Below are positions 18,190 to 21,870 of a DNA stretch of 64,000 nucleotides, piece after piece. The translations under genes were made by a program, and so were the position numbers. Every line of letters starts with the position of its first letter. The stretch's first letter is position 1. The DNA lies in NCBI RefSeq assembly GCF_056746865.1, contig NZ_CM163382.1; one strand, written 5' to 3'. The notes below the pieces were generated by a model. That model was not told the origin of the DNA. It searched no databases and was given only the letters and a program-made list of their open reading frames with translations.

Positions 18190-18826
18190 CCTTGCCAGCA
18201 GACTGTCAAGATGTATTAAACAGGTCGATTAGCTGTAGGCGGGATAGCTCGCGGGATAAATCATCTGAGAATGTGCCATTTTCCGGGCTGTTATGGGGGA
18301 CAGGCATTGCTGGTTGTTGGTTCGTTGATGGAGGGAAAGCTGCAGCACAGATAATGGGGCTTTAGGAAAAGGAAAGACATAATAACCACGACAAAGTGAC
18401 TATCAAAGTGGGCCAAGGACATTTGAATGTTTGAGATAATAAATATTGTAATGAAGCTGAGGCTATTGCTACCACCACACACTACAGAACCTGCACCATT
18501 GGATGCCAAGAACAACTGTCCGAATACATAGAAATGCTCAGATAAAAGTGTTTATGTCTCATCCGGCATGAAAACGATGAGCACATTATCTACAATCCAC
18601 AGGCCCTCCTATTTTCCCGCTTATACATTCCCCATCTTCCATTTTTCCTCACCCGCGCCGGCACCACACTGTCATCTTTCTGAGGTTTTACTGTCTTACA
18701 CATGTAATAAAAAGTTATTTTTCTGCAATTCGGGCATGATAGTAAGCGTAAACTGACCGCCGTATGTAGCCATCAGACGAGAATTGGTAACTTAGACGCC
18801 CATCTGATATAGACGGACATCTAAGT

Positions 18827-19252
18827 ATGGAATTACAGGACTGGCGAAAAGAACCTCGTAAAAACTATTCGAATGAATTCAAACTTCGTATGGTGGAACT
18901 GGCATCACAACCTGGAGCTTGTGTTGCACAGATTGCACGTGAAAATGGCGTCAATGATAATGTTATTTTCAAATGGCTCAGGCTCTGGCAGAACGAAGGG
19001 CGTGTTTCGCGGCGTCTTCCGGTAACGACCTCTTCTGACACTGGCGTTGAATTATTACCTGTAGAAATAACGCCGGATGAGCAGAAAGAACCTGTGGCGG
19101 CCATTGCGCCGTCTTTATCCACTTCCACTCAGACCAGAGTCAGTGCCAGTTCCTGCAAGGTGGAATTCCGTCACGGTAACATGACGCTGGAAAATCCATC
19201 GCCAGAGCTGCTCACAGTGTTGATCCGTGAACTGACCGGGAGGGGAAGATGA
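18827..19252 (+). CDS. IS66-family TnpA (orf1)
   Basis: 141 aa with HTH region; first gene of the IS66 three-ORF set. Confidence 0.8.
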   Translation: MELQDWRKEPRKNYSNEFKLRMVELASQPGACVAQIARENGVNDNVIFKWLRLWQNEGRVSRRLPVTTSSDTGVELLPVEITPDEQKEPVAAIAPSLSTSTQTRVSASSCKVEFRHGNMTLENPSPELLTVLIRELTGRGR

Positions 19253-19599
19253 TCTCACTCCCATCAGGTACCCGTATCTGGCTCGTTGCCGGCGTTACCG
19301 ATATGCGTAAATCCTTCAACGGACTGGGAGAACAGGTACAACATGTGCTGAATGATAATCCCTTCTCCGGTCACCTGTTTATCTTCCGTGGCCGACGGGG
19401 TGACACCGTCAAAATTCTTTGGGCTGATGCTGATGGTCTGTGCCTGTTCACCAAACGCCTGGAGGAAGGCCAGTTTATCTGGCCTGCGGTACGTGACGGC
19501 AAGGTATCCATTACCCGCTCGCAACTGGCAATGCTCCTCGATAAGCTGGACTGGCGTCAGCCAAAAACATCCAGCCGTAACTCACTGACAATGTTGTAA
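19249..19599 (+). CDS. IS66-family TnpB (orf2)
   Basis: 116 aa; start overlaps the orf1 stop. Confidence 0.8.
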   Translation: MISLPSGTRIWLVAGVTDMRKSFNGLGEQVQHVLNDNPFSGHLFIFRGRRGDTVKILWADADGLCLFTKRLEEGQFIWPAVRDGKVSITRSQLAMLLDKLDWRQPKTSSRNSLTML

Positions 19600-19629
19600 A
19601 AAACTCCTGACCGCATTATAAAAACGGTC

Positions 19630-21243
19630 ATGAGTCAGAAATACCTCATTCGCATCGCAGAGCTGGAAAGGTTGCTCTCTGAGCAGGCTGAAGCCCTCCG
19701 TCAGAAAGACCAGCAACTGAGTCTGGTTGAAGAGACGGAAGCCTTCCTGCGCTCTGCACTGACACGTGCCGAAGAAAAGATCGAAGAAGATGAACGGGAA
19801 ATAGAACATCTGCGGGCTCAGATAGAAAAACTGCGCCGGATGCTGTTCGGTACCCGTTCTGAAAAACTGCGTCGTGAAGTTGAACTGGCTGAGGCTCTGC
19901 TGAAACAACGTGAACAGGACAGCGATCGTTACAGTGGGCGGGAAGACGATCCTCAGGTTCCCCGCCAGTTGCGACAGTCGCGCCATCGTCGTCCGTTACC
20001 GGCACACCTTCCCCGTGAAATACACCGCCTGGAGCCAGAAGAAAGCTGTTGCCCGGAGTGTGGCGGTGAGCTGGATTATCTGGGGGAAGTCAGCGCTGAA
20101 CAGCTGGAACTGGTGAGCAGTGCCCTGAAAGTGATCCGCACAGAACGGGTAAAAAAAGCCTGTACAAAATGTGACTGTATTGTTGAAGCACCGGCGCCGT
20201 CCCGCCCGATAGAGCGTGGTATCGCGGGCCCCGGATTACTTGCCCGCGTGTTAACGGGAAAATACTGCGAACATCTGCCACTGTATCGTCAGAGTGAAAT
20301 CTTTGCCCGCCAGGGTGTCGAACTGAGCCGGGCCTTACTCTCCAACTGGGTTGACGCGTGCTGCCAGTTAATGACACCGGTGAATGATGCCCTGTACCGT
20401 TATGTAATGAACACCCGCAAGGTTCACACTGATGACACACCGGTAAAGGTACTGGCACCGGGTCAGAAAAAGGCGAAAACAGGGCGTATCTGGACGTATG
20501 TCCGGGATGATCGCAATGTGGGTTCGTCATCTCCTCCAGCGGTCTGGTTCGCGTACTCGCCGAACCGGCAGGGGAAACACCCGGAGCAACACCTCCGCCC
20601 CTTCCGGGGTATCCTGCAGGCGGATGCGTTCACAGGTTACGACAGGTTGTTCAGTGCAGAACGTGAAGGTGGTGCACTGACAGAAGTTGCGTGCTGGGCC
20701 CATGCCCGGCGAAAAATCCACGATGTATACATCAGCAGCAAAAGTGCGACGGCAGAAGAAGCCCTGAAGCGAATCAGTGAACTGTACGCCATCGAGGATG
20801 AAATACGGGGATTACCGGAGTCAGAGCGTCTTGCCGTCAGGCAGCAGCGAAGCAAAGTGTTACTGACGTCGCTGCATGAATGGATGGTGGAGAAGAATGG
20901 TACGCTGTCGAAAAAATCCAGACTGGGCGAAGCGTTCAGCTATGTACTGAATCAGTGGGATGCCCTCTGTTATTACAGTGATGACGGTCTGGCGGAGGCG
21001 GATAATAATGCTGCGGAAAGAGCGCTTCGTGCAGTCTGTCTCGGAAAGAAAAACTTTATGTTCTTTGGCAGCGATCACGGCGGCGAGCGTGGAGCACTGT
21101 TGTACGGGCTGATCGGCACCTGCCGTCTGAACGGTATCGATCCGGAAGCGTATCTGCGCCATATCCTGAGCGTACTGCCGGAATGGCCTTCCAACCGAGT
21201 TGACGAACTCCTGCCATGGAACGTAGTACTCACCAATAAATAA
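19630..21243 (+). CDS. IS66-family transposase TnpC (orf3)
   Basis: 537 aa with N-terminal coiled coil, CxxC zinc-finger region and DDE core. Confidence 0.85.
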   Translation: MSQKYLIRIAELERLLSEQAEALRQKDQQLSLVEETEAFLRSALTRAEEKIEEDEREIEHLRAQIEKLRRMLFGTRSEKLRREVELAEALLKQREQDSDRYSGREDDPQVPRQLRQSRHRRPLPAHLPREIHRLEPEESCCPECGGELDYLGEVSAEQLELVSSALKVIRTERVKKACTKCDCIVEAPAPSRPIERGIAGPGLLARVLTGKYCEHLPLYRQSEIFARQGVELSRALLSNWVDACCQLMTPVNDALYRYVMNTRKVHTDDTPVKVLAPGQKKAKTGRIWTYVRDDRNVGSSSPPAVWFAYSPNRQGKHPEQHLRPFRGILQADAFTGYDRLFSAEREGGALTEVACWAHARRKIHDVYISSKSATAEEALKRISELYAIEDEIRGLPESERLAVRQQRSKVLLTSLHEWMVEKNGTLSKKSRLGEAFSYVLNQWDALCYYSDDGLAEADNNAAERALRAVCLGKKNFMFFGSDHGGERGALLYGLIGTCRLNGIDPEAYLRHILSVLPEWPSNRVDELLPWNVVLTNK

Positions 21244-21346
21244 GCGTCAATACGGTGCTCCGTTGACGCTTACGCATGATATGTAATCCCGCGAGCATAA
21301 AACGAGTGAATTTGCACATCAGGTACAACAAGCAAGAGAGATAAAC

Positions 21347-21870
21347 GATGAAACCGTTACATTATACAGCTTCATCACTGGTGCTCGGACTGGCGTTAAT
21401 GGGCAATGCACAGGCAGTGACGACCATTCCGTTTTGGAACTCTATGGAAGGGGAAATGGGCAAAGAGGTGGATACAACTGGAAAACTTTAGCGCCAGGAA
21501 CGGTCTGCCGTTTGCCAGCAAAAACAACGGTTTTGACGCCACGGACGCGGTGCTGGAGTTCAACAAGCCGGAGCAGGTGAAACACATCGTCATGCTCGAG
21601 GAGATGAACAAGAAGGGCGACTTCATCTACGTCGGGCGTAAGGATGAATCCACCGAGAAGTTCTATAGAGGTGATTGCGCGATGACCACCGCCTCTTCCG
21701 GTTCTCTTGCCAACATTCGCGAGTACGCCAAATTCAACTACGGCGTAGGCATGATGCCTTACGACGCTGACGCGAAAGATGCACCACAAAACGCCATTAT
21801 CGGCGGAGCCAGCCTGTGGGTGATGCAGGGCAAAGATAAAGAAACGTATACCGGCGCAGGCGAAAAGCTG
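21347..21870 (+). pseudogene. ugpB: sn-glycerol-3-phosphate-binding protein UgpB remnant (internal deletion, 3' truncation)
   Basis: N-terminus MKPLHYTAS...[13 protein letters not shown] then stop; UgpB-like sequence resumes in ORF 21550-21921 ([23 protein letters not shown]...[18 protein letters not shown]) and ends in an IS66 fragment. Confidence 0.6.

Follow-up and report, generated by a model that had tools for sequence, protein, structure and literature searches.

Organization of the locus

The window, i.e. the whole stretch of 64,000 nt that was analysed (contig NZ_CM163382.1), contains damaged transporter genes, a complete insertion sequence and the relic of another one in the following arrangement:

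16967..17521 (within ~2 bp), plus strand: iron-type ABC transporter permease pseudogene, N-terminus missing, frameshifted (RefSeq annotation transfer)
17524..18190 (within ~2 bp), plus strand: ABC transporter ATP-binding pseudogene, frameshifted (RefSeq annotation transfer)
18669..18708, plus strand: Pho-box-like ugp promoter region CTGTCATCTTTCTGAGG...CTGTCTTAC... (alignment with the K-12 ugpB upstream region)
18734..18741, no strand: target-site duplication, left 8-bp copy GCATGATA (direct reading; octamer single in empty-site genomes)
18742..21273, plus strand: ISEc23 (IS66 family), complete, 2,532 bp (100% full-length identity to annotated copies; ends located in the re-read sequence)
18742..18765, plus strand: left terminal inverted repeat GTAAGCGTAAACTGACCGCCGTAT (compared with the reverse complement of the right end, 20/24)
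18827..19252, plus strand: tnpA, 141 aa, helix-turn-helix accessory protein (ORF; Pfam HTH_Tnp_1, E = 5e-12)
19249..19599, plus strand: tnpB, 116 aa, IS66 Orf2-type accessory protein (ORF; Pfam TnpB_IS66, PF05717, E = 1e-36)
19630..21243, plus strand: tnpC, 537 aa, DDE transposase (Pfam LZ_Tnp_IS66, zf-IS66, DDE_Tnp_IS66, DDE_Tnp_IS66_C)
21250..21273, minus strand: right terminal inverted repeat ...ATACGGTGCTCCGTTGACGCTTAC (sequence comparison of the ends)
21274..21281, no strand: target-site duplication, right 8-bp copy GCATGATA (direct reading)
21348..21864, plus strand: island-borne ugpB remnant (alignment with K-12 ugpB; RefSeq "extracellular solute-binding protein, incomplete")
21865..22401 (about), minus strand: IS66-family tnpA relic truncating ugpB, frameshifted, with an internal stop (RefSeq tnpA pseudogene)

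The coordinates of the two ABC pseudogenes were carried over from the RefSeq annotation of NZ_CP054368 via the alignment offset. An earlier note on this DNA had placed the insertion between damaged iron ABC transporter genes and ugpB. This location is borne out by the RefSeq annotation, which shows a permease/ATPase pair, and by the Pfam domain ABC_tran, whose match is divided between the ORFs at 17551-17787 and 17732-18052. The interval 18734-21870 named in that note joins two things: 18734-21281 is the insertion sequence including its duplications, and 21348-21864 is the ugpB remnant.

The element is an intact copy of ISEc23

The name ISEc23 was taken from the PGAP/RefSeq label "IS66-like element ISEc23 family transposase", and identity was measured against the copies annotated in this way. 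Many E. coli genomes, e.g. NZ_CP023844, have ISEc23 copies that match the element over its full length and in a single piece at 100% identity, and in 2,096 records the best match reaches 99% or more. The exact TnpC protein was found in 14,723 blocks of public assemblies.

All three genes are open, encode the full set of IS66-family Pfam domains and show the organization of the family, with the order tnpA-tnpB-tnpC and a 4 nt overlap (ATGA) of the tnpA stop and the tnpB start. The IS66-type catalytic domain of TnpC is practically complete, the DDE_Tnp_IS66 match (E = 9e-98) extending over profile positions 1-283 of 284. Judging from this intactness and from the polymorphism of the insertion between genomes, the copy would be active.

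The ends of the element are formed by 24-bp imperfect terminal inverted repeats (GTAAGCGT...ACGCTTAC), which match at 20 of 24 positions, the first 8 perfectly. Terminal inverted repeats with a GTAAGCG-type start are a motif of the IS66 family, and GTAAGCGT is present at both ends. The flanking octamers proved identical on re-reading. Both copies of GCATGATA directly abut the element, which reads GTAAGCGTAAAC... from 18742 and ...GTTGACGCTTAC up to 21273, and the identity of the flanking direct repeats stops at 8 bp. The octamer occurs only five times on both strands of the whole window, and the probability of a chance match at two fixed positions is 1/65,536. A target duplication of 8 bp has been reported as a hallmark of IS66 (PMC6778807, citing Machida 1984); here the duplicated octamer is found once in the empty sites described below. 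With three open ORFs and both ends abutting GCATGATA, the earlier description of an intact IS66-family element with a perfect duplication holds, and the family member can be specified as ISEc23.

The window has two further IS66-family copies, neither of them intact, as had also been stated. One of them (5122-8929) is without tnpA, interrupted by IS100 and frameshifted. The other is the tnpA relic downstream of ugpB, which is 89.6% identical to ISEc23 positions 169-351 (window 21888-22070) and in which no terminal repeat was recognizable. The window also has two fresh IS1203/IS629-type insertions.

The ugpB remnant is a decayed second copy

The core ugpB gene of E. coli encodes the binding protein of the sn-glycerol-3-phosphate ABC transporter and belongs to the Pho regulon. 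Compared with this gene, the remnant in the window is a second copy with about 94-95% nucleotide identity (95% in the distal part). The 5' block, consisting of the leader and the first 126 nt, aligns at 84% overall, the coding part being more conserved than the leader. The remnant begins at the ATG (21348) with these 126 nt, after which 461 bp have been deleted at the microhomology TGGAT (21469-21473). The deletion shifts the frame, and a stop follows at 21489-21491. The 47-aa product of the remnant is encoded in 937 index blocks of public assemblies. The distal part corresponds to about nt 583-977 of the 1,317 nt of the full gene and is then cut off at window position 21864; Pfam SBP_bac_8 is found on its out-of-frame ORF. 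A full-length ORF of about 438 aa followed by ugpAEC, as a functional UgpB would have it, is not present, given the deletion, the frameshift, the stop, the truncation and the absence of ugpA downstream. The decayed ugpB of the earlier note was thus found with its internal deletion and with the IS66-family fragment at its end, but it is an island paralogue and not the core gene. The promoter-like region upstream, in which the putative Pho boxes would correspond to those of the ugp promoter, is now separated from the remnant by ISEc23.

The insertion site is empty in related genomes

The earlier note had called the insertion fresh and had proposed a comparison with the empty site in related genomes. 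As query we used 600 bp of each flank joined by one octamer. This reconstructed empty site matches at 100%, in one piece and over the 1,200 bp, in about 46 complete E. coli genomes, so that the single-octamer site with identical flanks does exist. The 30 complete E. coli genomes among the matches listed all contain the query at 100% in one piece, and the total of genomes that cover at least 80% of it is 47; one of these 47, VTB97420v, carries an insertion sequence of its own 500 bp upstream. The exact ISEc23 insertion at this site was found in none of the 5,426 complete RefSeq E. coli genomes. Coverage of the occupied locus reaches 80% or more in only two of these genomes, each of which carries a different insertion. 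Because 100%-identical empty sites are present in so many complete genomes and the insertion in none, it can be regarded as recent. ISEc23 insertions have been described as polymorphic in E. coli populations (bioRxiv 10.1101/527788).

The lesions of ugpB and the tnpA relic are already present in the same form in the genomes with the empty site. In L053 the 461-bp deletion is present, but the 3' end of ugpB is kept and the truncation linked to the relic is absent. The ugpB paralogue was dead before ISEc23 arrived, so that nothing was inactivated by the insertion. Since the deletion and the 3' truncation are found in the empty-site genomes, the insertion is probably neutral and without phenotypic effect.

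Taken together, we are highly confident that a recent, lineage-specific transposition has placed ISEc23 in the 5' leader of an island-borne ugpB paralogue that was already dead, and nothing contradicting this explanation was met in the analysis. From what is known of the family, the DDE transposase TnpC, together with the accessory proteins TnpA and TnpB, would have linked both ends of the element to the target after a cut staggered by 8 bp, and repair of the gaps would have given the GCATGATA duplication. The variants suggest that the internal deletion of ugpB came first. An older IS66-family insertion accompanied by a deletion would then have caused the loss of the ugpB 3' end and of the downstream ugp genes, and this older element would have decayed to the tnpA relic before the present ISEc23 inserted.

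We considered two further accounts of the occupied site. The occupied state could be ancestral, the roughly 46 empty sites having arisen by precise excision of the element together with one copy of the duplication. An empty site with a single octamer is indeed also the product expected from such an excision. Precise excision of insertion sequences is rare, however, and it would have had to reach fixation in dozens of genomes that come from various hosts and continents. Furthermore, the ISEc23 copy in the window is 100% identical to copies elsewhere and so shows no sign of age, and the presence of different insertion sequences at different positions of the otherwise identical spacer in other strains fits repeated recent gain. 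We therefore regard an ancestral insertion as very improbable. An assembly artefact, by which a repeated element is placed at the wrong locus, might be suspected of ISEc23, which is multicopy in E. coli (median of 3 and up to 47 places per genome), and such repeats can be misassembled. Yet a misjoin would not yield a perfect 8-bp duplication of an octamer that is single-copy in the empty site, and both junctions lie exactly at the termini of the element. The chance that the assembly is wrong here is practically negligible.

Other insertions in the spacer and target preference

At least four other independent insertions were found in other strains in the 617-bp spacer that took up ISEc23. Strain 1517k (NZ_CP054388) has a 2,511-bp ISEc23 variant which agrees with the copy in the window in spacer, orientation, ends and length of the duplication; its target-site duplication CATGATAT is offset by 1 bp. 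The variant differs by 20 SNPs and lacks 21 bp, in frame, at the beginning of tnpC (TnpC of 530 instead of 537 aa). These differences, and the duplication of CATGATAT instead of GCATGATA, identify the 1517k insertion as an independent event. The upstream insertion in VTB97420v is also ISEc23 in the same orientation (target-site duplication CTGTAGGC). In addition, 1517k carries ISEc8 in the tnpA relic (target-site duplication GAAAAAAT) with ISCro1 nested inside ISEc8, and two IS256-family insertions are located in the spacer as well.

To these sites we added a survey of ISEc23 targets. A contig scan (5 loci) and five protein look-ups gave 35 distinct complete ISEc23 copies, of which 25 have a perfect 8-bp duplication. 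Neither the base composition at each position nor the enrichment of 3-mers and 4-mers revealed a target consensus in these 25 sites. The targets are mildly AT-biased, with a GC content of 0.41 in the duplication compared with 0.47 in distant flanks.

The spacer, and specifically the GCATGATAT position, could be a preferred target of ISEc23-type elements, the cue being the sequence or structure around the site or the IS66-family relic close by. Such a preference would modify the recent transposition as the best explanation, not replace it. It is favoured by the 1517k variant at its 1-bp offset and by the VTB97420v copy, both in the same orientation, and by ISEc8 with the nested ISCro1 in the 1517k relic. 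Given three insertions in 617 bp, we estimate the chance that two of them share the orientation and lie no more than 1 bp apart at about 0.007. Besides, both ISEc23 target sites have an 11-nt inverted pair (GCTCGCGGGAT / ATCCCGCGAGC) 3-6 nt to their right. These observations are post hoc, however, and no k-mer in the 25 surveyed sites survives multiple testing. Neither of the two ISEc23 target sites has a significant hairpin, predicted folds being no better than those of shuffles (z = -0.04 and -1.29), and the IS256-family insertions point to a general sink of neutral DNA rather than to IS66-specific targeting. The core ugpB leader also argues against a preferred target: among the matches listed from about 5,400 genomes, no insertion sequence was found at the equivalent position, and wherever a listed match was partial, the break fell at query position 180, within the variable upstream part and away from the site. 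Hence we consider a preferred target possible but rather doubtful. The more specific idea that the leader of the ugpB paralogue is a nucleotide-level integration hot spot for ISEc23-type elements, with the short GC-rich motif ATCCCGCGAGC beside both sites or tethering to the relic as cue, appears improbable. If true, it would reveal what guides target selection in a family that showed no sequence consensus in the survey of 25 sites.

The spacer was also inspected as a MITE-like unit with inverted-repeat borders. This was rejected, as only the 11-nt pair is present, and so short a match in two copies could be due to chance.

Significance and comparison with known elements

The recent transposition of ISEc23 matters little in itself, being one more lineage-specific insertion of a common insertion sequence into DNA that was already non-functional. 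It may serve as a strain or lineage marker, the site being empty in the related complete genomes, and it adds a data point on the ongoing IS activity of the strain. With its target duplication and the matching empty site it is also a clean textbook case for the IS66 family. The cluster of insertions in the spacer may be of interest for research on the target choice of insertion sequences and is equally compatible with a neutral-DNA sink.

The element as such is already known as ISEc23, a common E. coli insertion sequence, and the site is new and lineage-specific. The copy in the window agrees with ISEc23 copies elsewhere in the sequence, the three genes, the ends and the 8-bp duplication and is distinct only in its insertion site. 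The founding, experimentally studied members of the family are IS66 of Agrobacterium and IS679 of E. coli. Both were reportedly described by Han et al. in 2001 with the genes tnpA-tnpB-tnpC, a DDE-type TnpC with zinc-finger and leucine-zipper regions, and GTAAGCG-type ends. They are other members of the family than ISEc23, with which they have the 8-bp target duplication in common (PMC6778807).

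An intact IS66-family element in a decayed island

The window belongs to the E. coli chromosome, and its first 13.5 kb are 100% identical to several strains. The insertion lies in a decayed integrative island, in which iha, pseudogenes of ICE proteins and a PhoX-family gene are followed by pseudogenes of an ABC permease and an ABC ATPase. The following features were found at the insertion.

Features of the insertion (window coordinates)
18734-18741: left target-site duplication (TSD), GCATGATA, direct reading
18742-21273: IS element, 2,532 bp, bounded by both GCATGATA copies
18827-19252: tnpA, open; Pfam HTH_Tnp_1
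19249-19599: tnpB, open; Pfam TnpB_IS66
19630-21243: tnpC, open; Pfam LZ_Tnp_IS66, zf-IS66, DDE_Tnp_IS66 (E = 9e-98), DDE_Tnp_IS66_C
21274-21281: right TSD, GCATGATA, direct reading

The element starts with GTAAGCGTAAACTGACCGCCGTAT and ends with ATACGGTGCTCCGTTGACGCTTAC; the terminal inverted repeats are paired at 20 of 24 positions, the first eight perfectly. tnpA and tnpB overlap by ATGA. The flanking direct repeat comprises 8 bp only, with no identity further out. Its octamer is rare (five occurrences in the window, both strands counted), and the chance probability of two copies exactly at both termini is 1/65,536. On re-reading, the octamers were the same on both sides, as the earlier note had stated, and the three open reading frames with their IS66-family domains bear out its description of the element as intact. 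The note had also set this copy against two wrecked IS66-family copies, correctly: the copy at 5122-8929 is frameshifted, has no tnpA, adjoins an IS21-family element on the 5' side and has IS100 inserted in it, and the second is a damaged tnpA relic next to ugpB.

The empty site and the age of the insertion

An empty-site query of 1,200 bp was composed of 600 bp of the left flank, including one octamer, and 600 bp of the right flank. Among the matches listed it was found in one piece and with 100% identity in at least 30 complete E. coli genomes, the hosts being chickens, pigs and humans from several continents. At least 80% of the query was covered in 47 genomes; one of these, VTB97420v, bears its own IS 500 bp upstream, and therefore about 46 complete genomes have a truly empty site of the kind that the earlier note had proposed to look for. 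These genomes read ...TTCGGGCATGATATGTAATCC... with the octamer present once. Conversely, when the IS with 1 kb of flank on either side served as query, coverage reached at least 80% in two genomes only, both carrying different insertions. As the empty site is found elsewhere and the occupied query matches different insertions only, the insertion is real and lineage-specific. It is also recent when set against the island, as no divergence separates the flanks from the empty sites or the IS from other copies of ISEc23, in keeping with the freshness claimed before.

We considered whether the occupied site could be ancestral, the empty sites having arisen by repeated precise excision. This is very unlikely, since the IS is without sign of age and the empty site is present in many diverse genomes. 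A misassembly placing the IS here is likewise very unlikely, as a misjoin would not double an octamer that is single-copy in the empty site. The window holds a complete element with the ends and genes of its family and an 8-bp duplication; this element is absent from otherwise identical DNA. IS66-family elements integrate by TnpC catalysis at an 8-bp staggered cut with TnpA and TnpB as helpers; TnpC, assisted by TnpA and TnpB, would have integrated this copy in the same way.

The ugpB remnant and the effect of the insertion

Alignment with K-12 showed that this ugpB belongs to the island and is a paralogue of core ugpB. The 5' block (leader and first 126 nt of ugpB) matches K-12 at 84% overall, the distal part of the gene at 95%. 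The homology upstream takes in a Pho-box-like region (18669-18708), putatively the Pho boxes of the ugp promoter. From the end of the right duplication to the ugpB ATG (21348) there are 66 bp, which puts ISEc23 downstream of the presumed promoter and ahead of the start codon.

Between two TGGAT pentamers of ugpB 461 bp are absent (junction 21469-21473), resulting in a frameshift and then a stop at 21489-21491. The homology stops at 21864, at about position 977 of the 1,317 nt, and from 21865 an IS66-family tnpA relic follows on the minus strand with 89.6% identity to ISEc23 positions 169-351. The iron-type ABC permease is truncated and frameshifted and the ABC ATPase is frameshifted, Pfam ABC_tran being broken across two window ORFs. 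The internal deletion, the terminal IS66 fragment and the damaged iron transporter genes reported earlier were thus all recovered. Because these lesions and the relic are already found in the empty-site genomes, the IS inactivated nothing; since its target gene was dead beforehand, the insertion was presumably neutral.

One assembly (GCA_050320235.1, locus positions 4400-5412) has the same 461-bp deletion and retains the 3' end of ugpB past the stop codon, with a phytase-like gene downstream where other genomes have the IS66 relic. This assembly preserves an older state of the ugpB locus. As the deletion occurs there with an intact 3' end, it preceded the truncation at 21864.

Other insertions in the spacer and target preference

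The spacer between the ATPase pseudogene and the ugpB remnant (18191-18741 and 21282-21347) measures 617 bp without the IS and has a GC content of 0.43 versus 0.48 in the window. At least five independent IS insertions have occurred in it, including the one in the window and at least four in other strains.

Spacer insertions at loci of other strains
1517k: ISEc23 variant, 2,511 bp, 20 SNPs and a 21-bp deletion; same orientation; TSD CATGATAT; 1 bp from the window's site
VTB97420v: ISEc23, 4 SNPs; same orientation; TSD CTGTAGGC; window-equivalent 18233-18240
L059: IS256-family; TSD TTTATGTC; window-equivalent 18551-18558
L062: IS256-family; TSD CAACTGTC; window-equivalent 18513-18520

All three ISEc23-type insertions (GCATGATA, CATGATAT, CTGTAGGC) share one orientation, and the two IS256-family insertions (TTTATGTC, CAACTGTC) are 38 bp apart. 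Strain 1517k (locus positions 10500-15680) also carries an ISEc8 within the tnpA relic (8-bp TSD GAAAAAAT, window-equivalent 22268-22275) with ISCro1 nested in it; IS66-family elements are stacked on one another at this relic.

Target sites were surveyed in 35 distinct complete ISEc23 copies, 25 of them with a perfect 8-bp duplication. At these 25 sites no positional consensus was found and no 3-mer or 4-mer enrichment survived multiple testing, a mild AT bias being all that was seen. The two ISEc23 target sites checked for hairpins gave no signal. No IS insertion was seen at the equivalent position of the core ugpB leader among the matches listed. In the empty site, 488 nt separate the arms of a perfectly complementary 11-nt pair, GCTCGCGGGAT and ATCCCGCGAGC (18244-18254 and 21285-21295). 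To the left of each arm, at a distance of 3-6 nt, is the target duplication of an ISEc23 insertion. The second arm is also conserved in the ugpB leader of K-12; the pair may be a chance occurrence.

Most simply, the spacer can be read as neutral DNA that acts as a permissive sink. A published hot-spot analysis also places hot spots near transposase genes. The 1-bp coincidence of two ISEc23 sites (estimated probability about 0.007, given three spacer hits) is suggestive, post hoc, of a local preference. That the spacer is a hot spot for ISEc23 at the nucleotide level with an unrecognised targeting cue seems improbable to us.

Other mobile elements and rearrangement of the island

An IS3-family element of 1,310 bp and IS1203/IS629 type (ends TGAACCGCCCCGGG...) is present three times, at about 41705-43014, 45364-46673 and 50680-51989. 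The first and second copies share 100% identity, are flanked by 3-bp duplications (ATA and AAG) and are both missing from VTB97420v; the first appears to interrupt a type I restriction subunit R gene. These copies point to recent IS activity in the window's strain besides ISEc23. At 11374-12882, beside amiC and surrounded by IS3, IS21, IS100 and IS110 remnants, is an ltrA pseudogene (group II intron reverse transcriptase/maturase) that contains an internal stop, as annotated by RefSeq for an identical stretch.

The region 28186-49824 (type I restriction-modification genes, RhuM, MobI) is inverted versus VTB97420v, and in strains 98232 and PK8275 the window's first 13.5 kb are oppositely oriented relative to the ISEc23 site. 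The arrangement of the island differs from strain to strain, probably by way of its many IS copies.

Comparison with known ISEc23 copies

Of the copies annotated 'IS66-like element ISEc23 family' in 5,426 complete RefSeq E. coli genomes, many match the whole element at 100% identity, and on this ground we assign it to ISEc23, a known abundant IS. The best match reached at least 99% in 2,096 records, on chromosomes and plasmids. About 10 of the 35 surveyed copies have unlike octamers at their two ends (loci L015, L020, L021, L024, L025, L027/L028, L032, L034, L036), a signature of inter-copy recombination or adjacent deletions; the window copy, by contrast, is untouched. The 8-bp duplication is a reported IS66 hallmark (PMC6778807), and ISEc23 insertions are reportedly polymorphic across E. 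coli collections (bioRxiv 10.1101/527788). All testable defining features of the IS66 family are present in the element, which is itself already known and identical to ISEc23; the novelty is confined to its insertion site.
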